From an uncultured Bacilli bacterium (GTDB lineage: Bacteria; Bacillota_I; Bacilli_A; RFN20; CAG-826): a DNA stretch of 64,000 bases. Made by a program: the position numbers and the translations under genes. The DNA is taken from positions 51,413 through 115,412 of the forward strand of contig CALVSI010000002.1 of NCBI GenBank assembly GCA_944358985.1. Direction: 5' to 3'. Below are positions 10,416-60,768 of this stretch, piece by piece. How positions within the stretch are numbered: position 1 is the stretch's first letter; each line of letters starts with the position of its first letter. Under the pieces are notes generated by a model, which was given only the letters and a program-made list of their open reading frames with translations, was not told the origin of the DNA and ran no database searches.

Positions 10416-12026
<1,611 letters not shown>

Positions 12027-12085
12027 CTAGAATAGTATATATTTTTTATCAAACTTAATAAACATTAAAAGTTTAAAGATAAATA

Positions 12086-18781: not shown

Positions 18782-18791
18782 TGGAGAGCAT

Positions 18792-20171: not shown

Positions 20172-20183
20172 AGGAAAAGTATT

Positions 20184-29873: not shown

Positions 29874-32423
29874 TTAGTTCGTATGAAGCACTAATACACC
29901 ATAAGGTGGAACAGTGCATTCATTTTGTGAAACATTTGCACCATTTAAGGCGTAAGGTGTGCCACCTTCAACATTAATAGTAGCGGTCATATTGCTCTTA
30001 CCGGTATTAATATAAACGGCAAATGAACCATTATCTGATGTGACAACAAAATGATAAACATCAACACAATCATTAAATTCATAACCATTGAATTTAGCAT
30101 TTTTACCATACATTTTCTTAATGGTTGTTAATTGTTTGAAGAAATCAAGCATATCATTATCCGTATCGCTTTCACTTTGTTCGTTTGCGGATTTAATAGT
30201 GCTGTTATAAGAGTCCCATTCAACATCATAACTATTAAATGAATAATCTGTTGTCGTATCATCTCCCCATTTAAATGGTTGACGATACCATAGGTCTTCA
30301 TTATTTTCATTACCATACATTTCAATGTGCTTATTGGTATTACCAGACATACCTAATTCATCACCATAATAAATCCATGAAATACCTGGAGTTAATATTG
30401 TTGAAGCTGCACCTACTCTTGCTCTTTGAATTTGTTCAGTAGTGCCAGTCACATTCGTCGTATCTGACATTTGATTTATTAATCTAGCCGTATCGTGGTT
30501 AGAAGTAAATGGCGAATTAATAAAATCGCCTCTTTTTCCACCAGGAACGGTTGTTGAAGTACCATCTAATTGAATATTGCTGCTGGTAGTAAAACAATCA
30601 TATGTTTCAGCTTGATGTAAACTAGATGCTTGTGAAGCGGTAATTGTGCCAGCGCCTCCACCATCATATAACCATTCACGATTATGGTAATATAAACCAA
30701 AATCAAATTGAGAATCTAAGGCTTGGTAATATGGTGCAATTCTTTTGCCCCAACCATCAAAGTTTTCACCAACTAAGAAACATTCTGGATAAATAGCTTT
30801 TAATCGATTAGCAAATTCTTTCCAAAAATTAACATTTTTAGTTAAATCGCTAGAATAGTCAAAATCCACTGTGACCTGTTCCATTTTTTCTTCGTCGTAA
30901 TATGTTCTTTCGCCAGTATCAGAAATAATAATATCACCAGCAAAATCATCAACCTCATCACGCATGTAAATATGTTTAACAGCATCCAATCTAAAGCCAT
31001 CTAGTCCAAAACCCAACCAATATAAAGCCATGTTAATAACTAAATCTCTTGTTGATTGACAATCATAATTTAATTCCGCCATGTCGGAACCAAACTTACC
31101 ATAATAATAATACTTAGATTCACCATCTTTATACCAATCTGGATGATCTTCAACATTTACTTGGACATAATTGCCATTTTGATATAACCAAACTTTATCA
31201 CCTTCAAATTTCCAATGATACATATCACGATAATTAATTTCATTACCAAATTCATCATGGCCAACTTCTCCAAGTTGAGATTTTTCAAACCAAACATTGT
31301 TTTTAGAAGTGTGATTTATAACTAAATCCATCAAAACTTTCATTCCTTTTTGATGTGCTTTATAAATTAATTCGCGATAATCGTTAATAGTACCAAATTT
31401 AGAATCTACTTCATAAAAATCGGTAATATCATAACCATGATAAGATTCACTAGCTTGAATTGGTGTTAGCCATAAAACTTGAACACCTAAATCTTCTAAA
31501 TAATCTAATGAATTAATAATTCCGCGAATATCACCTAAACCATCACCATTGCTATCTTTAAATGATGCAACAAAAATTTGATATCCAACACCTAATGATT
31601 CAAATGAATCAGCGGTAGAAGAAACACCATAAATACTAGAAGAAGAATCCACATTTGTTTCGCTTCGATATTGACCAGTTGTATCTGTCACTATCGGATT
31701 AGTGGCAGCTTCATCACTATAAGTAAAAGTAAATTGTTTTACCATTCCTTGAATACAATAAATGTGAACATATCCTTTTTTAGCTAGTTCAACATCAAAA
31801 TCAGTAATATAGGTATTTGAACCACCATCGCTTGTCCAATGACTTCCACCACCCATGCTATTTTGATCAATAATTAAAAAGCCTAATCTTGTCGCACCTG
31901 ATAAAGAAACTGGTTCGCCAGTTCTTCCACCTAATAAATCAGTGCGATTTAAATCTATATCCATAACGCGACCGCTTTGGTCGATAGATTGTCCGCTTCC
32001 TCCAATGTCATTCATCCAGGAAGTAGACATTTCATAAAAGACATCTTGAACAGTTTGATTAGAAGCACCCCAAAGTGTTCCTTCTGAATCAATTGGGGCG
32101 TTTTGCCAAAGCCAAATTGCATAGTTATTATACTCTTCCATTGTCGCGTTATCTCTTCGATAGTGAATATATAAATGACCTGGCTCTGACCAAGTATCAG
32201 TCCAAGCATCATAATCATCCACCATTGTGGTGGAAATTGGTGACTCAGATGTTGTACTTGTGATAACGCTAGTTGTTGTTGTGCTTGTTGTGGAAGATGT
32301 TGTACTTGTGATAACGCTAGTTGTCGTTCCACTTGTCGTGGAAGATGTTGGATTATCTGGCGTACAACTAGTTACTGTTAGAGTCAACATTAATAGTGAT
32401 ATCAATAAATATTGTTTTTTCAT
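29874..32423 (-). CDS. GH13 alpha-amylase-family lipoprotein with a Ser/Thr-rich linker.
   Basis: Lipobox 'VTSC'. 'DLVINHTS', 'GFRLDAVKH', 'FLVGENFDGW' and 'FTSNHDTAR' GH13 regions I-IV. 849 aa. Confidence 0.85.
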   Translation of the reverse strand: MKKQYLLISLLMLTLTVTSCTPDNPTSSTTSGTTTSVITSTTSSTTSTTTTSVITSTTSESPISTTMVDDYDAWTDTWSEPGHLYIHYRRDNATMEEYNNYAIWLWQNAPIDSEGTLWGASNQTVQDVFYEMSTSWMNDIGGSGQSIDQSGRVMDIDLNRTDLLGGRTGEPVSLSGATRLGFLIIDQNSMGGGSHWTSDGGSNTYITDFDVELAKKGYVHIYCIQGMVKQFTFTYSDEAATNPIVTDTTGQYRSETNVDSSSSIYGVSSTADSFESLGVGYQIFVASFKDSNGDGLGDIRGIINSLDYLEDLGVQVLWLTPIQASESYHGYDITDFYEVDSKFGTINDYRELIYKAHQKGMKVLMDLVINHTSKNNVWFEKSQLGEVGHDEFGNEINYRDMYHWKFEGDKVWLYQNGNYVQVNVEDHPDWYKDGESKYYYYGKFGSDMAELNYDCQSTRDLVINMALYWLGFGLDGFRLDAVKHIYMRDEVDDFAGDIIISDTGERTYYDEEKMEQVTVDFDYSSDLTKNVNFWKEFANRLKAIYPECFLVGENFDGWGKRIAPYYQALDSQFDFGLYYHNREWLYDGGGAGTITASQASSLHQAETYDCFTTSSNIQLDGTSTTVPGGKRGDFINSPFTSNHDTARLINQMSDTTNVTGTTEQIQRARVGAASTILTPGISWIYYGDELGMSGNTNKHIEMYGNENNEDLWYRQPFKWGDDTTTDYSFNSYDVEWDSYNSTIKSANEQSESDTDNDMLDFFKQLTTIKKMYGKNAKFNGYEFNDCVDVYHFVVTSDNGSFAVYINTGKSNMTATINVEGGTPYALNGANVSQNECTVPPYGVLVLHTN
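32248..32345. repeat. About 2.3 copies of a 48-bp tandem repeat inside the amylase gene, encoding the T/S-rich linker.
   Basis: 'gatgttgtacttgtgataacgctagttgt' occurs at 32248 and again at 32296. Encodes '...TSVITSTTSSTTSTTTTSVITSTTS'. Confidence 0.7.
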
Positions 32424-32432
32424 ATAGACTCC

Positions 32433-32852
32433 TTATTCAACATAATCCCAAATGCCATATAAAGTTAAGACAGGAGGATAAATATTAGGAGGAATTAAAT
32501 CATTTTCAAAATCCCACAAATCATCTTCTGTCGCTATTAATGGTTTTGTTGACCAGCCAATAAAAGTATTAAATTCTTCATATTTTGACACTGGGTCAGC
32601 CGGTTTATCTGTAATTAATTCATTAGTCTTGCCTTTACCAGAATAATACGTTTCACCAGAATAACTTTCATAAATACTAGCGTAATAATAAATTGTTACA
32701 TCTTGAACTACAACGTTAGTTGTTGAAGTAGTTGTGCTTGTTGTTTGAGAAGTGTTTGTACTACCACTAGTGGATGTAACATCATTATTTACACAACTTG
32801 AAACCAATAATGTTAAAGGAAGTAATGCTAATAATAATTTATTTTTCTTCAT
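32433..32852 (-). CDS. Small lipoprotein with a T/S-rich linker and one Listeria-Bacteroides (Flg_new) repeat.
   Basis: Lipobox 'VSSC'. 'TFIGWSTKP...LTLYGIWD'. Confidence 0.55.
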   Translation of the reverse strand: MKKNKLLLALLPLTLLVSSCVNNDVTSTSGSTNTSQTTSTTTSTTNVVVQDVTIYYYASIYESYSGETYYSGKGKTNELITDKPADPVSKYEEFNTFIGWSTKPLIATEDDLWDFENDLIPPNIYPPVLTLYGIWDYVE

Positions 32853-32871
32853 GATTATTCGCTCCTTTCAC

Positions 32872-35800
32872 TTACATCTTAAATATGGCGAATTGTCTTG
32901 CACCCATTGAAATTCGACCATTGCCATAAGTAATCCCATCCATCTCGCTTGTATTTTGAGCGGAATTATAAACTAATTGTGCTTGTCCTACTTCTGACCA
33001 GCTAATATCGCTAGCGATTCTTCCGGTGAAGAAAATCCAATAACGATCACCAGTATTTGCCTCATCGCCTGTATAGAAGTAAACACCAATCATAGTTGCA
33101 CCATTAGATTGTGATTCGTCATCGTTATTATACCAAGCTGACAAATGATCAGGTGCACTTGGGAAAGACATATGACCAGTGAATTGTTTTCTTGTTTGGA
33201 ATAATCTTACAAATCCTTGATAAACTTCATAAACACTGACATCTTGTCCTTGATATTCGATATTTATTTTACGATCGTATTTAAATGAATTAGTTTCATC
33301 TGAACTACGATAAGAGTTATGAGAAATAATTTTTCCAAACATTGTTACTTCACTAGTGGAGGTCACAACACTTGGATCTTCAGAATAAGTTGGATATTCT
33401 GGGTAAGGACGTACCTCATATGATTCATTAGCAGGATCAACTTCCTTACTTCTGAATAGTTCTTCACCGCCTTGAATAAAGGCAATGCCTTGTGAAAACG
33501 CTACACTAGCATGAGCTGCTAAAGAAGCATAAGCAACATCTAGCGGATTAGGTTCAAGACTAGCCGGTGGGTTTTGAGATGTCGTGCCAGTATAATCAGC
33601 AAGAGTATAATTTAATTGATCAAATAAAGCGTAATTATCATGACATGAAACATAATTTATTGTTTGATATGGATTGGCACCAGGAGCATATGTATTAGTA
33701 CCTTTAATCATATCAGCAACATAATTAGCGTTGTTACCATCTCTTCCTTGGGCAATAAATCCCCAACCAGGATAAGCGTTATTGGTTCCCCAACCGCCAT
33801 CATTACCACCTCTAACGCCATTTCTTCCAGCATCATTAAATCCACCCAAATGGCCAGGTGATGTTTCACTAGCGTATAAATCTGAATAAACATGGGTGTT
33901 ATCAGTTCCAACAGTGCCTTCTTCACCACCATAACCACCACTTGTCCATCCTTCACCATATACAACAAAGTCTTTGTCAATGTTATATAAAGTGTCTTTA
34001 ACTTCACGCATCGTTTCAGTATCAATAAGACCCATTAAGTCAAATCTATAACCTTTGACTTTATATTCTGTTGCCCAAAATACAACACTATCAACGATGA
34101 ATTTACGCATCATCGTAGATTCTGTTTTTACTTCATTTCCACATCCAGCACCATCTTTATAATATCCATCTTCTGTCATTCTAAAATAATAGCCTGGCAT
34201 AATCTTTTGGAAATTAGAAGATGTTGCACTGCTAACGTGGTTATAAACAACGTCCATAATGACACGAGTATGATTATCATTAAGAGCGTATGCCTTAATT
34301 AACTCTTTAAATTCTTTAACACGAACTTCACCATTGTATGGATTAGATGAATAACCACCTTCCACGACATTATAATTTAATGGATTATATCCCCAGTTAA
34401 ATGAAACATTAGCTTCATTATTAGATTGATCAAATACTGGAAGAATTTGAATTGCATTAACTCCTAATTCTTCAATATGATCAAAACCAGTAGTTACGGT
34501 TATTCCATCTTCACTATATGTTGTACCATTTTCATAGAAAGCTTGATATGTTCCAGGAGTGGATGTTCCATTCCAAGTATCATCCATTGTTAAATCACGA
34601 ATATGAATTTCATAAACCGCAAGATCACTAGGAGCATTAATATCAAATCCTTCTTGGCCATCCCAAACAAGTGGAACTTCACCCCAACCATCTGGATCGG
34701 TCGTATCCAAATCTAATATCATTCCTCTTTCGCCATTAATTCCCGCTGACTTAGCGTATGGATCAACAACTTCATTTATACCTTGATTGTTATAAACATA
34801 ATATGTGTAATATTTGCCGTTTAAATCTTCTTCGACTTCGCATGACCAAACACCGCCAGCCATGTAATTCATACGATATAATTTATATGAATCGTTAATC
34901 ATAGAACCACCTGTTGGATCTAAATAACGAGGTGTGCCCGTTCTATATATTCTTAATTCAACACGTGCAGACATTGGAGACCAAAGTCTAAATGTTGTTT
35001 TCTCTTTTGTATAAATTGCACCTAATTGGCCATCATAGGTGTAATATTTTTCAAATCTTTCATCGCCATATAACAAATCATAGTCAACTGGTCGAGTTTT
35101 TGGTCGTTCAGGATAATTGACAAATGAACAGCGAACTTGATATACCACTGACGGAGGCATATGGTATTGGAAAGATATAGTAATTGTTGAACTTGGTTCG
35201 CTGACAGTTGCACTTAGTATGGCATAGCTTTCATAACGAGAATTTTGTTCATTTAAACCTAGATTATAATAACCAGGAGTTAAAGCATAAACTGTATAAC
35301 CACTAATAGGGCCAGTTGCTCTTACTTCAATTGTTTTCCAATCGGTAAACTTAGCATATGTTACTTTATCACCTAAAGTTTCTTCTAAAGTAGCGAATAC
35401 GTCTATACTACCACCTGTTCCATCAATCGCCCACACTTCTAAATTACCTTCTTCATCGGGTGGAAATTTATCATATTCAATAGTGGTATCTGTCGATTGA
35501 CCTGCCCAAGTATTCATTACTTTGATAATAAAATAAAAAGTATCATGACTTGGAAAATCTCTTTTTGGATAAAGAGTAATATACATTCCAAAATCATCAA
35601 CGCCATCGGCTTCTAATTCGACACCATCTAAACCACCAGCCCAAACATAAAATCTTTTCGTATCATATGATGTTGGTGGATCCATTTGATAATGAATAGT
35701 AAGAGTTTCTGGAATGTTAATTGTCTCTTCTTCAGAGGCATAACGTGGTCCTAAATATTCACCTTTAGGATCATCACTAAATTGTGCCATGACTTGTTCA

Positions 35801-35892
35801 TCTTCTTTTGAAAGTGTTTCTGGACTTGTATTTGCACAAATTCCAATTGTCATGACTAATAAACTTAGCAAAGCTAAATGTCTTGCTTTCAT
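32872..35892 (-). CDS. pulA: Pullulanase (GH13, type I), secreted or lipid-anchored.
   Basis: 'YNWGYNP' pullulanase signature. 'GYRFDLMGL', 'YGEGW' and 'YVSCHDNY' catalytic regions. 1006 aa. Confidence 0.85.
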   Translation of the reverse strand: MKARHLALLSLLVMTIGICANTSPETLSKEDEQVMAQFSDDPKGEYLGPRYASEEETINIPETLTIHYQMDPPTSYDTKRFYVWAGGLDGVELEADGVDDFGMYITLYPKRDFPSHDTFYFIIKVMNTWAGQSTDTTIEYDKFPPDEEGNLEVWAIDGTGGSIDVFATLEETLGDKVTYAKFTDWKTIEVRATGPISGYTVYALTPGYYNLGLNEQNSRYESYAILSATVSEPSSTITISFQYHMPPSVVYQVRCSFVNYPERPKTRPVDYDLLYGDERFEKYYTYDGQLGAIYTKEKTTFRLWSPMSARVELRIYRTGTPRYLDPTGGSMINDSYKLYRMNYMAGGVWSCEVEEDLNGKYYTYYVYNNQGINEVVDPYAKSAGINGERGMILDLDTTDPDGWGEVPLVWDGQEGFDINAPSDLAVYEIHIRDLTMDDTWNGTSTPGTYQAFYENGTTYSEDGITVTTGFDHIEELGVNAIQILPVFDQSNNEANVSFNWGYNPLNYNVVEGGYSSNPYNGEVRVKEFKELIKAYALNDNHTRVIMDVVYNHVSSATSSNFQKIMPGYYFRMTEDGYYKDGAGCGNEVKTESTMMRKFIVDSVVFWATEYKVKGYRFDLMGLIDTETMREVKDTLYNIDKDFVVYGEGWTSGGYGGEEGTVGTDNTHVYSDLYASETSPGHLGGFNDAGRNGVRGGNDGGWGTNNAYPGWGFIAQGRDGNNANYVADMIKGTNTYAPGANPYQTINYVSCHDNYALFDQLNYTLADYTGTTSQNPPASLEPNPLDVAYASLAAHASVAFSQGIAFIQGGEELFRSKEVDPANESYEVRPYPEYPTYSEDPSVVTSTSEVTMFGKIISHNSYRSSDETNSFKYDRKINIEYQGQDVSVYEVYQGFVRLFQTRKQFTGHMSFPSAPDHLSAWYNNDDESQSNGATMIGVYFYTGDEANTGDRYWIFFTGRIASDISWSEVGQAQLVYNSAQNTSEMDGITYGNGRISMGARQFAIFKM

Positions 35893-35947: not shown

Positions 35948-36904
35948 TTAAATGTCACCTTTGCAATATAACCAATAAATAATCGCACCTGGCCAGAAAA
36001 ATATAATAAGAATAATAAATATTGCCATATTCATTTCTTCTCTTTGCTTTTTAACTGGTGTTGGACCTTGATTAGCATTGTAATTATTATTCGGAATATA
36101 ATAAGGATTTGAATTATAGCAATATAAGCAGTTTGGATTATTTTCATTTAAAATCGCACCGCAATGCTTACATTCATTTACATTTGGATTATCATCTATA
36201 ATAACAACATTTTCGTTTTCTAATTTGTTTAGTTGATTAATATCTTCTTTTAAAGCTCTAATTTCTAAAACTGTATAATTTATTAATCCTAAACCAACTT
36301 TATTAAAATGTTCGATATAATGTGTCTTTAATAATTCAGCAATATCATTAATATGATTTTTAATATCTTGATAAGCAATATTGTTGTCAGTTAGATATTT
36401 GGTAATAATATCTTTTAAAGACATATTAATTTCCCGATTAGCGTAAATTGTCAAAGATTGTCTTAAAATTGTACCTTGACTTAAAAAACGATTTAACAAA
36501 GAATTTAAAAATGTTTGATAATCATTAATTTTAAAAGAAAATTGCCCTCTTGTTCTTAAATGCAATAAAACTTCTTTATGTTTTATATCATTTATATCAA
36601 TTGTTTCTTTACTGCCCCATAATCCAGAAAAAGTCGAATTTAAATTGTTAATAAAATAAATGGAAAATGGGAGAGGATTATCTGTTTTTTTATAACTTGT
36701 AATCGAATCAATAAGAACATCATCTAATACATAATTACCATTAGATAAGATTTTGATAATCTTATTTGTTTCATCGCAAATTAAAACACTTTGATTTTCA
36801 TCAACATAAATTTTACTCCCATAAGTATAATCTCTTGGAGAATATTTTGCTAAAATCCAATCATTAAAATCATTTTTGTAAGTGATCAATTTTTTATTTG
36901 ACAT
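35948..36904 (-). CDS. SPFH/Band_7_1-like protein with a zinc ribbon and a C-terminal TM anchor (tentative).
   Basis: N-terminal region 'KIYVDENQSVLICDETNKIIKI' resembles the YdjI-type Band_7_1 family. 'CKHCGAILNENNPNCLYC' zinc ribbon. C-terminal TM 'MAIFIILIIFFWPGAIIYWLY'. GAGGT RBS. Confidence 0.4.
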   Translation of the reverse strand: MSNKKLITYKNDFNDWILAKYSPRDYTYGSKIYVDENQSVLICDETNKIIKILSNGNYVLDDVLIDSITSYKKTDNPLPFSIYFINNLNSTFSGLWGSKETIDINDIKHKEVLLHLRTRGQFSFKINDYQTFLNSLLNRFLSQGTILRQSLTIYANREINMSLKDIITKYLTDNNIAYQDIKNHINDIAELLKTHYIEHFNKVGLGLINYTVLEIRALKEDINQLNKLENENVVIIDDNPNVNECKHCGAILNENNPNCLYCYNSNPYYIPNNNYNANQGPTPVKKQREEMNMAIFIILIIFFWPGAIIYWLYCKGDI

Positions 36905-36920: not shown

Positions 36921-39077
36921 TTATTTATTACTATGTTTTTTCTTTTTAAGAATAACCGCGACTATGATAATAGCGGTTACATTGCTTGCAATAACTAATG
37001 ATATCATACAAATGAGGATTTGAGTATCATTAATGTTGTTATATAAATATGGCGCTAATAACAAATCAACACCTCTTGACATGAAGTCAGGATATTCGCT
37101 CGCACCATATTTTTGAATAATATAATCATATCTTTCCACACATAAAGCAATATCATCACTTCCACTGCTAGCTGCAGTTTTAAATAATTGTTTATCTTCC
37201 GCGGATAGTGTCATAAACAAACTGCTTAAATTATTCCAAACATCTTTACTTGGTGCACTATTACCACTTGGATTACAAACTAAATCATTTAAAAAGTCGT
37301 TTGCAAATTCACTAGCGCTATAGGATTGTTCCACTAATTTATATAATTGGATAGCGGATTGGTTTTGATAACTAGCTGATTTGTAATATCTAAATCCATG
37401 CCAACCACTATTAAAACGAAAATGGGCACTTGAAGATGCAATATCGGTTGAATTACCAACATAAGAAATTGAATTAGAAGGTGCCGGTGAGGAAGAAACA
37501 TCAATTCTGTTATCGTTTTTGCTACTATAAATGTATCTTGTTCCATCATAACAAATATTATATGCACCACTTGTCCCGCTTATCTCAACAGCATAACTTG
37601 CCGCGTCAGTGTCACTTATAACACCATCATCAATAGAAAACTCAACATAATTGCCAGATGAATTAACATTATCTGCTCCTGGATTAAAAACATAACCTAA
37701 ACTATTAGAAGATTCATAAACAATTAAATAAGTTCCATTATAATCATTTAATTGACTATCAACTTTTTCAAAACTTCCACTTACAGCAGAACTACTCACG
37801 ACATTAATTGTCGCTGTCGCAGTAATATTATTATTCATTAAAGATGTTGCTTTAATAGTGGTACTTCCTTGTCCAATACCTCTAACTAAACCTTGGGTAT
37901 TAACACTAGCAACACTTGGATTTGATGATTCATATTTGACACTGCTACTCGCATTACTAGGAGTTGGAGTAATTTTTAATTGCAATGTTTCATTAATTTT
38001 AATTGTTTCAAAACTTGGAGAAATAGCAATGCTTTCTAAAACAATAGCTTTGCTAACTGTAATATTGCAAGATGCAGTTAATAAATCACTTCCAAAATAT
38101 GCTTGAGCGGTTATAACTGCATTTCCTTCACTAACTGCAGTTAATAAGCCATCGCTATCGACAGTAACTACATCATTATTATTTGAAGAATAATTAACAT
38201 CAATATCTGGATAACCATTCACATAAGCATCTAATTGATATTGTTCCCCAACTTGTAATGACAAATTTGAAGGCATAACAATATTATCGCCATCGCCCCA
38301 AATATAATTAGCAAATTCTGGATGATCCACAAACGGATTTCGATTGCCTTGATTTTCATAAACAGCGTTATTACGGAAAATATCACGATCAGTAACCGAA
38401 TAAGTATTATGCCAATCTAAACATGTTTCCACACTATCAAAAATATCAGTGATTTCATAATCATAATAAATACAGCAATACATAACAGCGCGAGCAACTT
38501 CCCCTTTCGCCTCGTCACATGGTTCAAAATAACTGCCTGTCGTATAACAATCTCTTGCTACTCCGTAAGTTTTCACTTGATTTGCGGAAGTATGAGCTAC
38601 TTCACCAAAATGTTTGCTTCCTCTAACGTTGTTAATATAACCTTCACAAGCAAAAATATTGTGATTATCAGTCTTAGAATTTGGAAAAGCAGTTTGAGTA
38701 AATATATGTTCTCTATTCCATGTTGTAGATGAATAACTACCGCCAGCATGAGCACTCTTATCAAATAACACTCGACTATATAAACAAATTACTTTATTGT
38801 TATGTCCCTCGGCTTCATCTGCATCTTCATATCTATCCCAATCATAACTTTTCGAACGAGGATTGTTAAAAGTCGCTAATTCGTTACGAAGTTCATCTCC
38901 TGTCAAATTCAAGCAATCATCATAATAACCATTAGGATAATCACTAACTTGCTCACCACTATAAGCATACGCACTTTCTATTGAATCATATTTAACAATT
39001 GAACTTGTTGTTGATGACACAATAGAAAAAGCAAACGCCGCTAATAAGAATAACTTTGTTATTGATTTTGTTTTCAT
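36921..39077 (-). CDS. Membrane-anchored extracellular nuclease of the endonuclease I (EndA/Vvn) family, with two Big_2 Ig-like domains.
   Basis: 'NREHIFTQ', 'DNHNIFACEGYINNVRGSKHFGEV' and 'FEPCDEAKGEVARAVMY' match the 'EHVWP / DLHNL..N..RGN / FEPPD..KGDVAR' blocks. Big_2-like 'VTVDSDGLLTAVSEGNAVITAQA'. C-terminal TM plus KKKKHSNK tail. GAAGGAGAAA RBS. Confidence 0.75.
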   Translation of the reverse strand: MKTKSITKLFLLAAFAFSIVSSTTSSIVKYDSIESAYAYSGEQVSDYPNGYYDDCLNLTGDELRNELATFNNPRSKSYDWDRYEDADEAEGHNNKVICLYSRVLFDKSAHAGGSYSSTTWNREHIFTQTAFPNSKTDNHNIFACEGYINNVRGSKHFGEVAHTSANQVKTYGVARDCYTTGSYFEPCDEAKGEVARAVMYCCIYYDYEITDIFDSVETCLDWHNTYSVTDRDIFRNNAVYENQGNRNPFVDHPEFANYIWGDGDNIVMPSNLSLQVGEQYQLDAYVNGYPDIDVNYSSNNNDVVTVDSDGLLTAVSEGNAVITAQAYFGSDLLTASCNITVSKAIVLESIAISPSFETIKINETLQLKITPTPSNASSSVKYESSNPSVASVNTQGLVRGIGQGSTTIKATSLMNNNITATATINVVSSSAVSGSFEKVDSQLNDYNGTYLIVYESSNSLGYVFNPGADNVNSSGNYVEFSIDDGVISDTDAASYAVEISGTSGAYNICYDGTRYIYSSKNDNRIDVSSSPAPSNSISYVGNSTDIASSSAHFRFNSGWHGFRYYKSASYQNQSAIQLYKLVEQSYSASEFANDFLNDLVCNPSGNSAPSKDVWNNLSSLFMTLSAEDKQLFKTAASSGSDDIALCVERYDYIIQKYGASEYPDFMSRGVDLLLAPYLYNNINDTQILICMISLVIASNVTAIIIVAVILKKKKHSNK

Positions 39078-39229: not shown

Positions 39230-42200
39230 TTAAACAAATTTTGAATATCTTTGTATCAAATACATTATATCCGAATAACTTATCAGACCTTTTCCGATAG
39301 ATACCTTTAGATAAGGGACTGGAAAATGAGAATAAAATTCATACGAAATTAAATCTTTAAAATCATCATATGTGAATAGCCCATATTTATCTATGTCTGC
39401 TTTCATCAACTCTTCATCGTATTTTAAATTTGCATCGTATTCAAATATATTAAATAATCCAGAAATTCCGCCAGGCATAGATAAGATATCTTCAGTAAAA
39501 TAATTTAAATGCCATGATGAAACAGGCGAATAAACTTTTGTATATTTCTGCTCGATATGTGCTTCTAATAACGTAACTATAGAAGCATTGCCACTAGAAT
39601 CAATGGCATAGAAATTATGACCAACAAAATCTATGTAGTTATTTTCAGTAAAATATACATATTTATTTAAATCAATGTCAAAAAATCCATGTTCCGACAC
39701 TACCCCTACATTTTTATTATTACTAAATTTCAAATTGATAACAACGCATTTTCTAAAAGGCTCAGAATCATTAAAAACAACTGGTGCAATGTCAATAATG
39801 CCTTTTTCATGATTGAATACTTTTACCATATCACCAGAAACAATATCTTTTACATATTTGACAGAGCCATCAGCCATAGTAATAAGAGTATCAGGCAATA
39901 AACATGGTGGTTTTTCGTCAGCTTTTGCGTGCCCTGAATAGTAGCCCATTTCAAACTTGTATTCCAAACCTGGAGCAGTATCAGCGTTTCCAGCTAAAAA
40001 TGCTCCGCTTACAGAACTTGTCGTATCATTAATCCATTCTGTTGTCGGTTGTGGACTAAAATTTGGGTCATTTGTGGTTATATAATTGTTTGCTGTGAAT
40101 CCATTTTGCCCGCTCCACGAGATAATAGTGTCGCCTTCTACCCACTCATATCCTATCCTAAAATAGTATCCTTTTTTAACATAATGTTCAGCAATTCCAG
40201 CAGCTTGTAGACGATATGTTTCTGTCCAAGGTCCATCTTGTGAAAGAGATTCTTCAATATAATATCTTGTGTGACCGGTGCCTGCTGACCATTCTGCCTC
40301 ATTATCATCAAAATTAGGATCTTTAAAAACACTGAGCGATACTTTAACACCTTCTGTTGGAACAATATTGATCTCAAAATTCCCATCAACATAAATCCAC
40401 GATGAATCACTGTAACTTATAGTTTCAATTCCGTTTTTTGTAATAGAAACTTGAACAGCATCGTTAACAACAATATTGAAATATAGTCCGCTTGCGATTT
40501 CTGTACTCCCATCATTGCTTGAATTTACTAATGAACTATCATAAGCATTTGATCCATCAGAATTTTGAGAAATAGTAATAGTGTAATCAAAAACAGGATG
40601 CACAATGCTCTTATCATATGTAACTGAAATTGTGAAAGTTGTGGAAAATAAGCCATCCCAATAGTAGTTAGAACCATCACTATTAGAAGTATATGTAGTT
40701 TGTGCTGAGAATTGACCACTAATAATTGTGCCATTGGAAATAAAATTGCCTGATGAAGTAACAATGACAGACACATTAGCAGTTCCTTCTTTAGCTTCCG
40801 CGCTTAAATAACTATTTGCTGAAATGTTTGAAAAATCCAAAAAAGCTTTTCCGGTTGTAGACGTGTGTGTAATGATTGCACCCAAATAGCCATTATTTTG
40901 TGAATCGGCATTTACTTTAATAGTGCCGTTAACAAGAAGTAACGCATCGTCTTTGCCAGTAGAATCATATCTTATTCCTAAATCTGCATTTACTTCTGGA
41001 GCGACACTTGAATTATAAAAAACTAGACTTTCATTAACATTTAGTGTTCCACCTTCTTCCACAATCATTTTAGAGCCCATCAAAAACTTTACTTTTTGAT
41101 TGCAATTAAAAATGCCGTCATCTCTAACGTAAATGGAGATTTTTGAAGATAATGGAAGATGAAATAGCCTTGTATCCAAAGTTATTCCGTAAACATCTAA
41201 TTCAATATAACCGATGTCTATCTCCCCATTAATAACAATACTGGTGCCATTAATATTTGTTGATCTTGAACCATATAATACATTAGTCGGTTTGTATTCT
41301 AATTCAATACTACCAGATTTAGTATAAATCAACGAAGGATCTCTGCTAGAGGAAGGTAAGATAGCAGCCAAATTGCTCGAGTATGACATATTACTTGGTC
41401 CTACTACTATAGCATTTGTATACATGCTTGCACCATGTTCAATAGTTGTATATGTCTGAAGTGCTTGAAAATCAAAAACATTAAATGGTGATTGATTTAC
41501 ACTAATTGCGCCAGTTAAATTACCACCACTTAAAACATCATATAAAGCTATGTATGTATTCAACACAGCACCATCATTAACTTTCAAAAATCTTTCGTTA
41601 TCAAAAGAATTATCAATAATATTTTCATATTGGCTCATTCCAGAATGCCTAGCATTGCTACTATCTTCCTTTAAATAACCGAAACAATTAAAAGTTGATC
41701 CTGGATTGCACGTAATAGAACTTTTTTCACCAAGATTAATTTCACAATAATAACCATTGTTCCCATTATATGATGTCGCCCCTCCAAGATTTAAAATTCC
41801 GTTTAATATAATATCTGAACTATTTCTCATATTTATAAGAATAGAGCGATAAGTATCGACATTACCTTGTGCATCGCCTAATTTATTACCATACAAATTT
41901 CTATCGTCGGAACTTTTAATTTTATATAGTGTTTCTTCGTTGTTGATGTTGCCTCCTGTCGCTGAACTATTATTGGCTTTTCCGATAAAAGGAATTGTTA
42001 ACGTTACCCCGCTTTTTATTTCGATTGTTTCATAACAATTTATTATCGTTTTAACATAAACGATTATTTCTTGTCCGGAATCTGCTTCTTCTAAAGCTTT
42101 GTTTAAAGTTCGATAATTTGTTCCTGTATCGCTGTTATAACAAATATATGGTGCCGTTTCATCAACTACAGCTGTTGCATTATCATAATTTAAATCACCA

Positions 42201-42289
42201 TAAACTATCCATGCAGCTTGACCAATGCTAAAAAATGCAAGGAGAGCAGAAATCCATATAGTAAAAGAAAATATCGTTCTTTTTAGCAT
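39230..42289 (-). CDS. 1019-aa secreted beta-helix-rich surface protein with a C-terminal Hint (bacterial intein-like) domain and an ~85-aa C-terminal tail.
   Basis: N-terminal signal followed by 'GQAAWIVYGD'. Hint block A 'CLLPDTLITMADGSVKYVKDIVSGDMVKVF', block B 'VVSEHGFF', and a C-terminal 'VYSPVSSWHLNYFTEDIL'. Confidence 0.65.
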   Translation of the reverse strand: MLKRTIFSFTIWISALLAFFSIGQAAWIVYGDLNYDNATAVVDETAPYICYNSDTGTNYRTLNKALEEADSGQEIIVYVKTIINCYETIEIKSGVTLTIPFIGKANNSSATGGNINNEETLYKIKSSDDRNLYGNKLGDAQGNVDTYRSILINMRNSSDIILNGILNLGGATSYNGNNGYYCEINLGEKSSITCNPGSTFNCFGYLKEDSSNARHSGMSQYENIIDNSFDNERFLKVNDGAVLNTYIALYDVLSGGNLTGAISVNQSPFNVFDFQALQTYTTIEHGASMYTNAIVVGPSNMSYSSNLAAILPSSSRDPSLIYTKSGSIELEYKPTNVLYGSRSTNINGTSIVINGEIDIGYIELDVYGITLDTRLFHLPLSSKISIYVRDDGIFNCNQKVKFLMGSKMIVEEGGTLNVNESLVFYNSSVAPEVNADLGIRYDSTGKDDALLLVNGTIKVNADSQNNGYLGAIITHTSTTGKAFLDFSNISANSYLSAEAKEGTANVSVIVTSSGNFISNGTIISGQFSAQTTYTSNSDGSNYYWDGLFSTTFTISVTYDKSIVHPVFDYTITISQNSDGSNAYDSSLVNSSNDGSTEIASGLYFNIVVNDAVQVSITKNGIETISYSDSSWIYVDGNFEINIVPTEGVKVSLSVFKDPNFDDNEAEWSAGTGHTRYYIEESLSQDGPWTETYRLQAAGIAEHYVKKGYYFRIGYEWVEGDTIISWSGQNGFTANNYITTNDPNFSPQPTTEWINDTTSSVSGAFLAGNADTAPGLEYKFEMGYYSGHAKADEKPPCLLPDTLITMADGSVKYVKDIVSGDMVKVFNHEKGIIDIAPVVFNDSEPFRKCVVINLKFSNNKNVGVVSEHGFFDIDLNKYVYFTENNYIDFVGHNFYAIDSSGNASIVTLLEAHIEQKYTKVYSPVSSWHLNYFTEDILSMPGGISGLFNIFEYDANLKYDEELMKADIDKYGLFTYDDFKDLISYEFYSHFPVPYLKVSIGKGLISYSDIMYLIQRYSKFV

Positions 42290-42292
42290 GGT

Positions 42293-42970
42293 TTATTCCG
42301 CCGTTACAACAAGATTTAAATTGAAAGATGGAACATTTGTTGAATCAAATCCATTCCCAATTTTTAAAAGATTAGAATTAAAAACATATGATAATTCGGC
42401 TTTCGCAATATCATTTTCATTCAAAATATTGCTGATAGCAAAAGTTGACTGTATTGTTTCGTTTATTGTGTCGTTGTTTTTATCTATATCAACATTACCA
42501 AGTGGAGCAATTGTTGAAGTACCACTTAAAATTCTAAAAGTAACCGAATTTAAAACTATTTGTGATGAATTATTAAAATGGTTAGTATCATTTAATGACA
42601 GACTGCTTTGAAAGATGGTTTGTTTATCATTCGTAAACAATCCATTTTGCTCAGCAAATCTCATATTTATTTGAAGGTAAAACGTAAGTGTGCCAGTATC
42701 AACAATCTCGCTGTTCGATACGAAACCTTCATCGCAAAACGAAAAACAAGAATATCCGCTAGGATATATTGAAGTATCAAACGCGATAAATCCTTCAACA
42801 CCACCAACATTAATATTTTCACTATACTTTACAAAATTATCATCATAACCAATTAAAAAACTAGCAAATCCACCAGAAATTAGAGATAAAGATATTAAAA
42901 ATAGTAATCCTCCACCATAGAGATGTTTGGATAGAATTTTAAGCAAAGTTTTTTTAAAATTTTCTTTCAT
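42293..42970 (-). CDS. TasA-like small secreted protein carrying a SipW-cognate-type signal. Second copy, and first gene of the Hint-protein operon.
   Basis: 225 aa. '...GGGLLFLISLSLISGGFASFLIGYDDN' resembles the 'GGGTxAxFxD' SipW-cognate motif. 3-nt spacing to the downstream gene. Confidence 0.5.
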   Translation of the reverse strand: MKENFKKTLLKILSKHLYGGGLLFLISLSLISGGFASFLIGYDDNFVKYSENINVGGVEGFIAFDTSIYPSGYSCFSFCDEGFVSNSEIVDTGTLTFYLQINMRFAEQNGLFTNDKQTIFQSSLSLNDTNHFNNSSQIVLNSVTFRILSGTSTIAPLGNVDIDKNNDTINETIQSTFAISNILNENDIAKAELSYVFNSNLLKIGNGFDSTNVPSFNLNLVVTAE

Positions 42971-48274: not shown

Positions 48275-49225
48275 TTAATAACTGATGTAAAACAATACAT
48301 TAAAGTTCCAAGTATTATTTGATGGTGAAGAATAAGTACTAACATAACAATCAATTGCAAATAAAGGCTCATTATCCTCATCATAAATGATTTGATAATA
48401 ATCATCATATTCTGTTGTAGAATTTGCACTATCGAGCAAATAATTTTTTGCTAATAGTTGACTAATAAAATCTTCAACAGAAACAATTGATACATCTTCT
48501 TCATCGTGACTGGTATTATATTCACAGTGAATATCAATATCAACATAAGGATATCCATTAAACGTATAACATGCATAAGACACATTATTTAAATACATTG
48601 GCTCAAACTCAAATAAAGAAGCATATTCACGATCTAACATTAACAAATCGGATATTAAAATTGCATCTTGATTATTTTGATTAGGCCATGATGTAGAAAG
48701 ATATTTTGTATCTATATAAGCATCCACAGTTAGACAAGACAAAGTGTAATCATAATAAATATTTAAATAAAAACGTGAATTGATAGTACTAGTATTATCT
48801 AATTGTTTATATAAATAATAAATTTTTTCTTGTTCACTGCTCGCTGTTTGTAGTTCATTATCTATAACAAAAGTCTCACCATAATTTGTTAAAACAAAAT
48901 TATAATAATCATCAACAATTTCCACACTGGCAGTTTCATAAGTTAACGCTAAAACATTCGTGGTGAAATAATATGTTAACAAATAATTACTAGTGGAAAC
49001 TTGTGATGAACTTGTATCTAAAGATATCGAAGTATAAAACAAGGAAGGATCAAATGGAATTATATTACCTTCGCCTAAATAATCATTCATCAACAGCAAA
49101 TCACTTTCGGTCCAATCGTAGATATAATTATTAGATGTTGATGTGTTGTTATTATTTTGATCACACCCCGCTAATAGACCAAGAAGAATAGGAGCCAATA
49201 ATAGTAACTTTATATTTTTTCTCAT
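48275..49225 (-). CDS. Lipoprotein of unknown function.
   Basis: Lipobox 'LLAGC'. GGAGGT RBS. Last gene of the opp-LRR transcription unit. Confidence 0.55.
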   Translation of the reverse strand: MRKNIKLLLLAPILLGLLAGCDQNNNNTSTSNNYIYDWTESDLLLMNDYLGEGNIIPFDPSLFYTSISLDTSSSQVSTSNYLLTYYFTTNVLALTYETASVEIVDDYYNFVLTNYGETFVIDNELQTASSEQEKIYYLYKQLDNTSTINSRFYLNIYYDYTLSCLTVDAYIDTKYLSTSWPNQNNQDAILISDLLMLDREYASLFEFEPMYLNNVSYACYTFNGYPYVDIDIHCEYNTSHDEEDVSIVSVEDFISQLLAKNYLLDSANSTTEYDDYYQIIYDEDNEPLFAIDCYVSTYSSPSNNTWNFNVLFYISY

Positions 49226-49237
49226 ATACTACCTCCG

Positions 49238-51304
49238 TTATTTTTCCACTAGTGGAACAGGTTTTCCATCGCTACCAAATTCCCATTCACCTAAAAAATA
49301 AACGACGCACGAATCATCATACCATCCATTTTGAACACGTGTTGATGAGGTATCTTCTTCAACAACTTCTAAATAAATTGGCATACGTGAAGAATATGTT
49401 CCGTCAGCGTTTTGTGGACGACATTGAGTGAAAGCATAACGATCTAAAGTAATACGATTCGATACGTTATATGGAATGTAAACATATTCTAGATTGTAAT
49501 TATGATGGAAAGAATATTCTCTAAAAATATAAACATTTTCACTTAAATTGAGTGATTGCAAACTTTCACAATTATAAAATGTTCTTACATTAATAGCGGT
49601 TAATTCGCTAGTTGAATCCGGCATGACGATAGTTTTTAAAGATGTCATATTTTCAAAAGCTGAATCTTCAATTTCATCAACTGTATTTGGTAAAACGAGT
49701 TCTTCGATACTAGTGCAATTATAAAAACTGCGATAAGAAATAGATTCAATACCTTCAATATTTATTCCAACACGTCTAGTTTCAAATGTAACATTTTTTA
49801 AAGATGTGTTATTAGAAAACATTTGATAAGCTGTTTCTTTAATTGTATAAGGAATAAAAACACTAGTTATAGAAGTATCATCTGCAAATATTGAACCATT
49901 AGAAGCCAAATTTGAAACTGTGCTAGGAATGGTAATAACGTTAGCGTTAGTGACGTTATTGTAATTATCATCATATAAAATAATACTTTTTAAATTTGTA
50001 CATTTATCAAATGCACCAACGTCAATACGAACAATGCCTGTTGTAGTAGATAAACCATGTTTATCATATGTGACTTTTCCTTCGTACATTCTAACTGTTT
50101 CTAATGCAGAATTTCCTGCAAATAAATTAGCAGAAATAACCGAAACATTTTTAGGAATATCAAATGATTCAATTGCGGTATTAGCAAAAGCATATTGCCC
50201 TATTGATCTTGTCGTTTCAAAACCATTGCCATCAAATGAGAACGATTTTAAATTAGTGCAGTTATTAAAAATATGGCTCGGAATAGAAGAAAGATTTCCT
50301 GGCCAAACAAATTCTTCAATACGCGTGCATCCTTCAAAAGCATGTGAACCAATATTTACCATTGAGACAGGTAAATCTATTTTAGAAACGCCGGTATTAG
50401 CAAAACTATAATCGCCAATGCTGACAACTGATTCGCCAATTTCAATATCAATTAAACTAGTACATCCATTAAAAGCAGAATTTCCAATTGATGTAACAGA
50501 ATCTGGTAAATTCACACCTTCAAGATTAATACATCCGTTAAAAGTATTAGTAGGAATATCTTTTAGATATGAAGGAATTTCAATATAAACAAGTCCTTCC
50601 ATATTTGCAAACAAGCCATCAGACCAAACACTAATATCATATTCATCAGTATCAAGGTAAACGATATTGTAATTATCGTTTTGATATTTAGCAGGTATCG
50701 TTGATTCTTCACTATTTAAGACAACAGTGTTTTCAGTAATCATATTCTCCCCTATTTTGAATAAGATTGATGAAATAACTGTTATATCATCACCTGGAAG
50801 ATTATTTAAAAATGGTGTGTTGTAAAAAGCTCCAATACCTAAAGAGGTAATGTTTTTAGAGAAATTAATTGTTGCAAGATTAGAACAATTAGCAAAAGCG
50901 TATTCACCGATTGAAGTGACGCTGTCGGGAATTGTTACAGATGTCAAACGTTCACATCCATCAAAAGCGGAAGCATTAATTGTAGTAACTGGCATACCAT
51001 TAACTTCACTAGGAATAGTAAAATTGCTTGGATAACCACTCTCTGGTTTTAATCTTGTAATCGTTGCGGTAGGATTTTCAACATTTGCACTATAAGAATA
51101 CTCAACATATTGCATATTAGATAAGTTGACAAGCCAAACATTAACAGCCAAAGAATAAATAACTGTCAAAAGAATAATAACAACACCTAAAATGGAAAAA
51201 CCAACAATGTAGTTGCGTTTTTTATTTTTTTGCATTTTTAAAAATTCTTCTTGTTGTTTTTTTGTTTTAACTTCCATTAGTTGAAATTTATCAATTTCTG
51301 GCAT
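49238..51304 (-). CDS. BspA-type leucine-rich-repeat (LRR_5) surface protein with an N-terminal signal-anchor.
   Basis: Repeated 'IPDSVTSIGEYAFANCSNLATI' and 'LPDSVTSIGNSAFNGCTSLIDI' units. AGGAGGT RBS. Overlaps the oppF stop by 1 nt. Confidence 0.7.
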   Translation of the reverse strand: MPEIDKFQLMEVKTKKQQEEFLKMQKNKKRNYIVGFSILGVVIILLTVIYSLAVNVWLVNLSNMQYVEYSYSANVENPTATITRLKPESGYPSNFTIPSEVNGMPVTTINASAFDGCERLTSVTIPDSVTSIGEYAFANCSNLATINFSKNITSLGIGAFYNTPFLNNLPGDDITVISSILFKIGENMITENTVVLNSEESTIPAKYQNDNYNIVYLDTDEYDISVWSDGLFANMEGLVYIEIPSYLKDIPTNTFNGCINLEGVNLPDSVTSIGNSAFNGCTSLIDIEIGESVVSIGDYSFANTGVSKIDLPVSMVNIGSHAFEGCTRIEEFVWPGNLSSIPSHIFNNCTNLKSFSFDGNGFETTRSIGQYAFANTAIESFDIPKNVSVISANLFAGNSALETVRMYEGKVTYDKHGLSTTTGIVRIDVGAFDKCTNLKSIILYDDNYNNVTNANVITIPSTVSNLASNGSIFADDTSITSVFIPYTIKETAYQMFSNNTSLKNVTFETRRVGINIEGIESISYRSFYNCTSIEELVLPNTVDEIEDSAFENMTSLKTIVMPDSTSELTAINVRTFYNCESLQSLNLSENVYIFREYSFHHNYNLEYVYIPYNVSNRITLDRYAFTQCRPQNADGTYSSRMPIYLEVVEEDTSSTRVQNGWYDDSCVVYFLGEWEFGSDGKPVPLVEK

Positions 51305-58524: not shown

Positions 58525-58658
58525 TTCAGATTTTCTCCTTTCTTTCAATCATGAATGATTGACTAAAAATATACTACAATCAAAAATAAAAAACAACGTA
58601 TTTTTTGTACATACACACGAACAACATATATATACGCACACGCGTTAGAGAAAACTTA

Positions 58659-59078: not shown

Positions 59079-59987
59079 ATGAATGAAAAAGTTACAAGAA
59101 AAAATCATTTAAAATTCTTTCTAGCGTCGTTAATTAGAAAACCAATAAAATTAATTTCTAAAAAATTATATATTTCTTTGGAATATCGATATATAACTCA
59201 CCATAAATTGAATTGGAAAAATCCAACTAGATATACGGAAAAAATTCAATATCTCAGATATTACGTGTATCCAAATTGGCCATTAGTAACAAAATGCGCT
59301 GGAAGGTGTGGTGTTAGAGATTATGTTAAAGAAAATGGATTAGAAGATATCCTAATTCCTATATATGGAATTTATGATAAATTTGATGATATAGATTTTG
59401 ATAAATTGCCAAATCAATTTGTTATGAAATGTTCACATGCTTGTGCTTTTAATGAAATAGTTTTAGATAAAAAAAGTTTAAATTTGCATGATTTAAGAAA
59501 AAAATTTAACAAATGGTTGAAAACAAATTACGCAAAAAAAACATTAGAATTGCACTATTTAAAAATAAAACCACAAATTATTATCGAAAAATATATTGGT
59601 CAATCGCCATTAGAATATAAAATCCATGTATTTAATGGAAAAGCAAAATATTTATATCTCGTCAGCGGTCGTTTTAAAGATATTCGATATAACAATTATT
59701 ACATCGATTTTACTCCATTTGATGAGGCACAATTCAATGGTTGGAAAAAATCAGATTATCCTTTTGAAAAACCAAATGAATTCGATAAGATGATCAAAAT
59801 AAGTGAGCAGCTTGCAAAACCCTTTCCGTTTGTTAGAGTGGATTTATATGACATTGAAGGGAAAATTTATTTTTCAGAAATGACATTTACTCCCGCGAAA
59901 GGAACATTAATTTTTGATGATGATAAAGCCGATTTTATTATTTCGAAATGGCTAGATATTTCAAAATTTATAACCAATAAGAATTAG
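59079..59987 (+). CDS. TupA-like ATP-grasp protein (teichuronopeptide/capsule-associated, PF14305-like).
   Basis: 'NWKNPTRYTEKIQYLRYY', 'GVRDYV' and 'LPNQFVMKCSHACAFNEIV' match the TupA-like pattern 'NLKNPKTFNEKLQWLK...FVIK.NHGSG'. Confidence 0.6.
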   Translation: MNEKVTRKNHLKFFLASLIRKPIKLISKKLYISLEYRYITHHKLNWKNPTRYTEKIQYLRYYVYPNWPLVTKCAGRCGVRDYVKENGLEDILIPIYGIYDKFDDIDFDKLPNQFVMKCSHACAFNEIVLDKKSLNLHDLRKKFNKWLKTNYAKKTLELHYLKIKPQIIIEKYIGQSPLEYKIHVFNGKAKYLYLVSGRFKDIRYNNYYIDFTPFDEAQFNGWKKSDYPFEKPNEFDKMIKISEQLAKPFPFVRVDLYDIEGKIYFSEMTFTPAKGTLIFDDDKADFIISKWLDISKFITNKN

Positions 59988-60768
59988 GAAGCAATAATTC
60001 ATATAACATCAAAGCGTAATTAATATCATCATCTTTGTCTTTGTAATCATCGCTTTTAAATTCATAATCTATCTTAATTCCACACATTCTTTTTAAACTT
60101 TGTGATAATGATTTTAACTTGAAAGCCAAAAATACATAAGTATCATTGTTATTTCTTTCAGTCATATTCGTTGGAATATTATCTAAATCAATTTCTACTT
60201 TTAGAGCGTTATAATTAACACCACTTCTCATATAAAAAGTAATGTACAATATGACATGAGAATAATGTGGAGACACATGACTGCCATCTGGATTATCTGC
60301 CGCGGCTTTAAAATTTAAAGCAAAATAGTCATAGTCATACATTTCTTTTGCAAACATCATTCCAAAACCACCTTCATCAATTTGAATTCTAGATAATTGG
60401 AAATCACCATTACAAAACATTTGACCATCAAATAATTTAGATACATATCCGATTTTAAAAGAATCATCAATTAATGATAATTTTTTATTTTCAGCATACG
60501 AACTAGTGTAATCTAATCTTGACATATCTTCATCATAATAATTTTCAATCGCAGATTCATATGTTCTTACATATTCTCCAGGATTCAAAGTTTCTTTAAT
60601 TGGATTTACAGATTCAAAAACATCAGGACATTCGCGATAATAATTATTTACAAAAATGGGATCATTATATTCATCACCATCAAATACTTCTTGTAAGTCT
60701 TTTCCGCACGCTGTTAAAACAAAAACTAAACAAATAGATAAACATTTAAATATAAATTTATTTTTCAT
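59968..60768 (-). CDS. Lipoprotein of unknown function.
   Basis: Lipobox 'LTAC'. 266 aa. Confidence 0.5.
   Translation of the reverse strand: MKNKFIFKCLSICLVFVLTACGKDLQEVFDGDEYNDPIFVNNYYRECPDVFESVNPIKETLNPGEYVRTYESAIENYYDEDMSRLDYTSSYAENKKLSLIDDSFKIGYVSKLFDGQMFCNGDFQLSRIQIDEGGFGMMFAKEMYDYDYFALNFKAAADNPDGSHVSPHYSHVILYITFYMRSGVNYNALKVEIDLDNIPTNMTERNNNDTYVFLAFKLKSLSQSLKRMCGIKIDYEFKSDDYKDKDDDINYALMLYELLLPNSYWL

Follow-up and report, generated by a model that had tools for sequence, protein, structure and literature searches.

We analysed a stretch of 64,000 nucleotides (the window) from an uncultured Bacilli bacterium (contig CALVSI010000002.1), known from a genome assembled out of a gut metagenome, with a G+C content of ~28%. 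The subject here is one of its reverse-strand genes, which encodes a protein of 1019 amino acids with an export signal, a long passenger region, a Hint domain and a short acidic tail. Assemblies in NCBI, ENA and Logan contain exactly this 1019-residue protein, along with orthologues that are 94–99% identical and 1019–1022 amino acids long. The Hint domain and tail together form the last 224 residues (796–1019), and we consider it likely that they act as a self-contained, single-turnover C-terminal autoprocessing module, in which a Hint domain of mini-intein size is joined by an obligate acidic helical domain. The parts of the gene are as follows.

39230..42289, (-): whole gene, 1019 amino acids, exported passenger plus Hint domain plus tail, from the open reading frame list and translation; stop codon at 39230-39232
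42197..42289, (-): N-terminal hydrophobic export signal or signal-anchor, residues 1-31, MLKRTIFSFTIWISALLAFFSIGQAAWIVYG, from direct reading of the sequence
39905..42196, (-): passenger, residues 32-795, beta-rich with repeated N-G-x-I motifs and the end ...HAKADEKPP795
39476..39904, (-): Hint domain, residues 796-938, from profile matches to solved Hint domains, AlphaFold2 plus Foldseek, and conservation; key residues Cys796 (codon 39902-39904), Asp841, Glu866-His867 (His codon 39689-39691), His891, Ser921, His927 and Ser937-Met938
39233..39475, (-): acidic conserved tail domain, 81 amino acids, residues 939-1019, from conservation and fold prediction; near-invariant residues N947, F949, D965, I966, Y969, G970, L971, K1000 (codon 39290-39292) and G1001

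A preliminary description of this DNA had placed a Hint or bacterial intein-like (BIL) domain near the C-terminus of the protein, in a span (39230-39940) that corresponds to residues 784–1019 plus the stop codon. The Hint motifs it quoted are all present, CLLPDT...KVF at residues 796–825, SEHGFF at 865–870 and VYSPVSSWHLNYF at 919–931.

The Hint domain and its catalytic residues

Scans with the single sequence stayed below curated thresholds. The Pfam Hint model PF01079 matched the 1019-residue protein at E = 0.11 (12.5 bits against a cut-off of 29.7), the NCBIfam model TIGR01445 (intein_Nterm) at E = 0.025 and the best phmmer hit in the PDB at E = 0.27, while the Pfam scan found no match to PF07591 (PT-HINT), one of the profiles with which the preliminary description had proposed to check the domain. 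The Hint claim hence needed testing with relatives and structure. By the criterion of the preliminary description itself, such a lack of significant Hint or PT-HINT profile matches in the single-sequence Pfam scan would formally refute the domain, a verdict that was overturned by the family profile and the structural model.

With the last 243 residues as query, 56 proteins were found at 32–68% identity, most of them with >85% query coverage including the tail. A family profile (A2) was made of 24 trimmed homologous modules, with a mean column identity of 49% over the whole module. Against the PDB this profile matched the BIL2 domain of Tetrahymena BUBL (6y75/6tmm, E = 6.2e-7, profile positions 10–151), 8w20 (E = 1e-4) and Hedgehog 1at0 (E = 6.6e-4). 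When the 24 members were scanned singly, PF01079 was detected in 18 (best E = 1.1e-8), alongside matches to Hom_end_hint (n = 10), Intein_splicing (n = 8), Hint_2 (n = 6) and PF07591 (n = 4, all weak, best E = 4.7e-4). NCBIfam matches in the family were solely to models containing the intein N-terminal region.

The AlphaFold2 model of the module, built from A2 (232 residues), has a predicted local distance difference test score (pLDDT) of 93.1 and a predicted template modelling score (pTM) of 0.90. Compared with the PDB by Foldseek, it matches BIL2 (E = 1.7e-9), DnaB mini-inteins, the C. thermocellum BIL 2lwy (E = 7e-8) and Hedgehog 1at0 (E = 4e-7), in each case with a probability of 1.0. Template modelling (TM) scores normalised to these targets are 0.74–0.82 and the alignments, of ~145–188 columns, take in nearly the whole of Hint targets of ~130–250 residues; the query TM of ~0.5 is consistent with a match to the Hint part alone of the 232-residue model. 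On family profile and predicted structure, which carry this assignment where the single-sequence scan was insufficient, residues 796–938 are a genuine Hint domain with the horseshoe beta fold and a member of the HINT superfamily, as the preliminary description had supposed.

Residue conservation was counted over 167 complete modules plus the window's own (168 in all).

Cys796 (Cys1): 168/168
His867 (block B, also numbered His80): 167/168
Glu866 (also numbered Glu79): 156/168
His891: 162/168
Ser921: 161/168
His927 (block F): 144/168
Ser937: 163/168

The Cys1 and block-B His on which the preliminary description had staked its reading are thus the most strictly kept of these residues. Position 841 (Asp841, the equivalent of Hedgehog D46) is acidic, Asp or Glu, in 157/168, and an hhalign comparison of the family with Drosophila HhC, for which the HhC sequence was entered by hand, aligned C796 with C1, D841 with D46 and H867 with H72 (probability 79%, E = 1.7e-5). 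Some inteins likewise carry Asp at the Hedgehog D46 position, and we count the acidic residue at 841 as not diagnostic of Hedgehog kinship.

In register with BIL2, the positions of the intein penultimate His, terminal Asn and +1 nucleophile are occupied by Met938 (131/168), Pro939 (155/168) and Gly940 (156/168), in agreement with the earlier observation that a terminal His-Asn and a +1 nucleophile are lacking. Read from the alignment, the N-to-S acyl shift machinery is under strong selection and that for Asn cyclisation and trans-esterification is missing. As Met-Pro-Gly replaces His-Asn-Cys, neither splicing nor C-terminal cleavage would be possible, and by established intein and Hedgehog chemistry this leaves only thioester formation and resolution at the Pro795-Cys796 junction. 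The non-splicing autoprocessing type proposed in the preliminary description therefore stands, with its N-terminal catalytic residues conserved.

The tail domain and its passengers

The tail, put earlier at ~85 residues, is 81 residues long (939–1019) and is conserved to much the same degree as the rest of the module, with a mean column identity of 46% across the 24 distant members. When 1.84 billion representative proteins were searched with a profile of the tail, 2,246 clusters (at 50% identity) matched with E<=1e-3, and with E<=1e-10 there were still 1,955. In 200 of 203 tail proteins the same Hint domain ends exactly one residue before the tail, the remaining three being fragments of 89–126 amino acids, and in 163/167 the tail ends 0–8 residues from the protein C-terminus. 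Among six strain orthologues (94–99% identical) the variable columns number 4/81 in the tail, 10/143 in the Hint domain and 50/764 (6.5%) in the passenger, with the tail itself 95–99% identical between strains. The suggestion that a variable C-terminal module is released or rearranged here is thus not borne out; the strain comparison proposed to reveal hypervariability found the tail less variable than the passenger.

Identities of Hint domain and tail track each other while the passenger is decoupled from both: relative to the window protein, passenger, Hint and tail identities are 59/34/27% in the member P0236 and 30/60/60% in P0251. This suggests that Hint domain and tail have been exchanged between genes as one unit. 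We propose that the tail is an obligate partner of the Hint domain and an integral part of the machine, not its cargo.

Modelled alone, the tail has a pLDDT of 86.5 and is predicted to form an extended PGGIxGLFNIFEYD segment followed by four helices; in the two-domain model it appears to pack rigidly on the Hint domain, judging by the pTM of 0.90. It has no Pfam match, no PDB sequence match and no NCBIfam model, and its fold found no match in the PDB or BFVD (best E = 0.99 and 6.8). The domain is strongly acidic (mean net charge -9, pI 4.25). Its K1000 is conserved in 166/168 modules, with flanking glycines in 146/168 and 163/168.

A few members depart from the usual terminal position. In P0236, P0242 and P0107/P0131/P0143, 20–44 extra residues follow the tail, for example ...EYQQIEWDWSYFKPLKPE or an acidic extension of 44 residues. 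The divergent P0128 / P0217 (3496 amino acids), with a repetitive passenger, holds two internal Hint plus tail modules (residues 336–549 and 1784–1995) and ends in transmembrane helices, so that its module is not terminal; processing at the internal modules would cut this protein into pieces.

One homologue search was dominated by database 'proteins' of 80–180 amino acids that comprise just the tail, in some cases preceded by the 3' part of the Hint domain. We rejected the idea that stand-alone tails are independent genes, since both cases checked look like 5'-truncated relics. At one, found in 64 collection blocks (L010-L012, 6001-6264), an 87-residue tail reading frame begins 15 nucleotides after a V-ATPase subunit D gene with no Hint domain upstream, and at the other (L013, 5650-6258) an open frame covers Hint positions 28–143 plus the tail and lacks Cys1. 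Such relics are perhaps by-products of recombination at the conserved module. Near the first relic lies a gene pair (L010, 8323-9536) with Guanylate_cyc (a weak match) and PycTM, resembling a Pycsar-type defence.

Family proteins range from ~300 to 4,931 amino acids. The passenger of the window protein has neither a Pfam nor a PDB sequence match, and its homologues (29–59% identity) are nearly all ~1000 amino acids long and nearly all carry the same C-terminal module. Among 40 members scanned, the most frequent passenger domains were Flg_new (Listeria-Bacteroides repeats, 15/40) and BspA-type leucine-rich repeats (LRR_5, 5/40); subtilase, dockerin, FctA pilin, M64 peptidase, Big_2 and type IV pilin/camelysin-type N-termini were also found. 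An N-terminal hydrophobic signal is present in 125/151 full-length members, and by these sequence features the passengers are mostly large, exported proteins of surface type. In many members, and in the gene directly upstream of the window gene, the N-terminal hydrophobic stretch ends in a motif like G-[FY]-S-x-W-[IV]-[IV], seen in the window as SIGQAAWIVYGD and SGGFASFLIGYDD, which recalls SipW/camelysin-type signals; elsewhere in the family the signal is a true GTTFAWFTD, type IV pilin or lipoprotein signal.

Where the sources name a host, it is one of the Clostridia from gut or rumen, known from metagenome-assembled genomes (MAGs); the module was not found in plasmid or phage collections. 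A single-protein scan of genome contigs, among which the genome of the window itself was not represented, gave three loci. Sporulation genes surround one member locus, in a walled Clostridium, and the family hence extends beyond wall-less bacteria. One MAG (locus L005, 17 kb) has two module-bearing Flg_new genes within 5 kb, at 8001-9140 (+) (379 amino acids) and 10722-12866 (-) (714 amino acids), beside a sigma-70-type regulator gene.

Proposed cleavage and possible fates of the thioester

What the analysis shows directly is the Hint fold, how its residues are conserved, the architecture, the size of the family and the lack of variability; that cleavage occurs at all, where it falls and how the thioester is resolved is what we infer. 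The protein would be exported through the Sec pathway and the module would fold outside the cell. The Cys796 thiol would then attack the Pro795 carbonyl (an N-to-S acyl shift) with the assistance of Glu866/His867, leaving the 795-residue passenger held on the module by a thioester. Resolution of this thioester would have a sole outcome, the separation of passenger (1–795) from module (796–1019). The last strand of a Hint domain ends beside its first residue by general Hint topology, from which we infer proximity of the tail to Cys796; as the most conserved segment of the tail starts at the intein +1 position, beside the putative thioester, the tail would be placed to shield or address it.

Two fates of the thioester seem about equally likely, namely hydrolysis, with release of the passenger or removal of a pro-domain, and transfer to a nucleophile selected by the tail. 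Plain hydrolysis, which is a sub-case of the autoprocessing module, is quite possible. Water would attack the thioester and the module would be a disposable pro-domain, such as a temporary tether, an aid to folding or a release switch gated by calcium, in which the tail has a structural or regulatory role and no choice of nucleophile. Cleavage of the N-terminal junction is known from B-type BIL domains (PMC7765530), the module is soluble as well as highly acidic, and no acceptor-related partner gene is conserved nearby. Hydrolysis does not need an 81-residue accessory domain, yet the near-invariant polar residues N947, D965, Y969 and K1000 are kept in ~2,000 clusters, the tail is never lost from complete genes, and a pro-domain that is thrown away should not equal the catalytic domain in conservation.

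Transfer is also a realistic possibility: the tail may select the nucleophile, with the new C-terminus of the passenger ligated to an acceptor by analogy with the Hog domain of Hedgehog and with BIL2. We lean slightly towards transfer because water needs no accessory domain, because the tail keeps its near-invariant polar residues and because the module occupies the slot of the anchoring signal in comparable proteins. In a tentative extension, the module might be a bacterial counterpart of Hog, a single-use built-in ligase that passes the thioester to a tail-positioned nucleophile and so provides sortase-independent covalent anchoring or polymerisation. As acceptor, such a ligase might use an envelope amine or hydroxyl (on a peptidoglycan stem peptide, a wall polymer or a glycolipid) or else a lysine on another subunit.

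Several observations weigh against the module as proposed. The residue before Cys796 is Pro in this gene and its strain orthologues (KPP before C; residues 794-795, 39905-39910 (-)), which is rare in the family (4/167 relatives; S, G and N prevail), and Pro at this -1 position strongly slows N-terminal cleavage in intein fusions. The block-B Thr position is Ile or Val in the family, hence of the 'TxxH-like' SEHGFF motif named in the preliminary description the His is present and the Thr is not. For the ligase in particular, no acceptor-related partner gene is conserved at the member loci and nothing there points to an acceptor, and the acidic, soluble tail, unlike the hydrophobic sterol recognition region (SRR) of Hedgehog, does not favour a lipid acceptor. 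Lipid anchoring in a mollicute-like, wall-less host was dropped as a general explanation in view of this tail and of the walled Clostridium member.

An isopeptide variant, in which either tail Lys1000, in its G-K-G loop, or a lysine from another subunit attacks the thioester and a branched or polymerised protein results, seems unlikely. It would account for the conservation of K1000 and its flanking glycines, and BIL2, the closest solved relative by sequence and structure, does form Lys-epsilon isopeptides (PMC8616854); some passengers are also pilin-like (FctA, N_methyl, camelysin-type signals). An intramolecular branch would however have no obvious benefit, and a conserved Lys may equally serve fold or binding.

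Known Hint domains splice (inteins), lipidate (Hedgehog) or cut (BIL, PT-HINT). The Hint domain itself is therefore familiar; what is new is its fixed, conserved 81-residue C-terminal partner. This is a very large bacterial family, unnamed in Pfam or NCBIfam, with the Hint domain locked to a new accessory domain. No description of a Hint plus tail module was found in the literature searched. The proteins that carry the module are surface proteins of adhesin and enzyme type, in which it takes the C-terminal position usual for a Gram-positive anchoring signal. If it only cuts, it would represent a widespread maturation step for the surface proteins of gut commensals. If it transfers, proteins would be anchored by a new kind of chemistry, and Hedgehog autoprocessing would have a parallel, or possibly its ancestor, among prokaryotes. 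Were the ligase proposal true, thousands of gut-Clostridia surface proteins would be anchored or polymerised covalently without sortase, and a compact self-ligating tag of 224 residues would be of obvious use in biotechnology.

Neighbouring genes and comparison with known systems

The module gene is flanked by two genes on the same strand.

42293..42970, (-): upstream co-oriented gene, 225 amino acids, stop 3 nucleotides before the ATG of the module gene, with a similar N-terminal hydrophobic motif
36921-39077, (-): downstream gene for an exported protein that combines Endonuclease_1 with two Big_2 domains and has, at the C-terminus, a transmembrane anchor and then KKKKHSNK

The upstream gene is probably co-transcribed with the module gene, though a part in module function is uncertain; its product has neither a Pfam nor an NCBIfam match. 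The upstream genes of the window gene and of the member P0026 are not homologous to each other, and the neighbourhoods of five other members have nothing in common. The lack of a conserved neighbour gene fits a self-sufficient module. On the 3' side, a spacer of 152 nucleotides contains no open reading frame and no immunity candidate before the exported nuclease gene, as the preliminary description had noted in reporting no immunity gene and a surface nuclease next. The membrane anchor of this nuclease indicates that surface retention in this organism also uses such C-terminal anchors. The window has no second Hint plus tail module and no Rfam family, and LPXTG-like signals are absent from the window and the fetched member loci.

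Elsewhere in the window, a SPFH/Band_7-like protein at 35948-36904 (-) contains a segment resembling a zinc ribbon (CxxC...CxxC) and, at its C-terminus, a hydrophobic helix. Four large consecutive open reading frames at 16961-24952 (+), of 606, 459, 531 and 807 amino acids, have no Pfam match at E<=1e-5; several have membrane-like N-termini, an unscanned frame of 254 amino acids lies amid them, and a Flg_new lipoprotein follows at 24956-26062. Lipoprotein-type exported proteins are numerous (29874-35892 (-), 48275-49225, 56122-58548 and 59968-60768; signals that end in Cys, for example LTSC, VTSC, LVSC, LTAC and LAGC). Among them are an amylase whose long linker is rich in Thr and Ser and a pullulanase-like enzyme of 1006 amino acids. 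The BspA-type leucine-rich repeat protein encoded at 49238-51304 carries a membrane anchor at its N-terminus and lacks one at the C-terminus.

PT-HINT domains of polymorphic toxins, to which the preliminary description had also likened the module, directly precede diverse toxin domains and have adjacent immunity genes (PMC3482391). The position of the Hint domain in the C-terminal part of a large exported bacterial protein is shared, and the weak PF07591 matches in 4/24 members point the same way. A polymorphic toxin, in which the Hint domain cuts to free a variable C-terminal effector (the tail) next to a cognate immunity gene, is nevertheless very improbable. The tail is one conserved domain in 2,246 clusters and not a diverse set, is less variable than the passenger and, being acidic and helical, resembles no toxin and matches no Pfam model or fold; no small open reading frame or immunity candidate lies 3' of the gene; and the Hint domain, without the residues for a C-terminal cut, could not free the tail. 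Of the BIL/PT-HINT comparison in the preliminary description, the PT-HINT half accordingly falls away.

Least probable of all is a true (mini-)intein or a degenerate remnant of one with no present function, since against the Hint fold and the weak matches to intein N-terminal models and mini-intein structures stand the lack of a C-extein (the module is terminal in 163/167), the missing terminal Asn and +1 Cys/Ser/Thr, the unrelated passengers in place of a conserved host protein, and an invariant Cys1/His on thousands of different passengers, which argues for selection on activity and not decay. A class 1 intein was rejected on the same absence of Asn, +1 nucleophile and conserved host protein, with no extein beyond the 81-residue tail. 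An A-type BIL, defined by a conserved C-terminal His-Asn (PMC7765530), was rejected because the module has none.

Sortase and LPXTG offer a functional analogy, in which a C-terminal element of Gram-positive surface proteins leads to a thioester at the passenger's new C-terminus. Flg_new, leucine-rich repeat, pilin and subtilase passenger types commonly carry LPXTG. The module differs in having no sortase or LPXTG and in a Cys built into the substrate, which makes it single-turnover, and its attachment of passengers to the wall is hypothetical.

B-type BIL domains keep the N-terminal intein motifs, lack the canonical C-terminal motif and are expected to cleave at the N-terminus (PMC7765530). 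Compared by description, the module agrees with this type in its loose sense: it retains blocks A, B (His) and F (His927), its block G is degenerate, and both are bacterial Hint domains in non-conserved secreted proteins. BILs are described as lying in hypervariable regions with variable flanks, whereas the module has a variable N-terminal flank and one conserved C-terminal domain.

The closest solved relative by profile (E = 6e-7) and structure (E = 1.7e-9) is the Tetrahymena BUBL BIL2 (6y75/6tmm), in which an N-terminal thioester conjugates the upstream domain to a lysine rather than leading to conventional splicing (PMC8616854). BIL2 differs from the module, to which it is ~17% identical, in keeping the His-Asn end, in being flanked by ubiquitin-like domains and in being eukaryotic and cytoplasmic.

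The Hog domain consists of a Hint domain plus an SRR or ARR, and cholesterol addition in Hedgehog needs both Hint and SRR (PMC2362128). Hog is eukaryotic and the module bacterial. In the hhalign comparison with the hand-entered Drosophila HhC sequence, 84 Hint columns and no tail column were aligned, hence no homology with the SRR was detected. The SRR binds sterol or membrane, whereas the module's tail is acidic and soluble. The junctions also differ, S/G/N before C-[LVI] in the module family and G before C-F in Hedgehog, as does the block-B Thr, which the module family lacks. Both are without a C-terminal Asn and +1 nucleophile, and among Pfam models PF01079 fits the family best (18/24). Hog and the module have in common an exported, interchangeable passenger, a Hint domain and an obligate helical extension (70–80 amino acids in Hog) at the extreme C-terminus.

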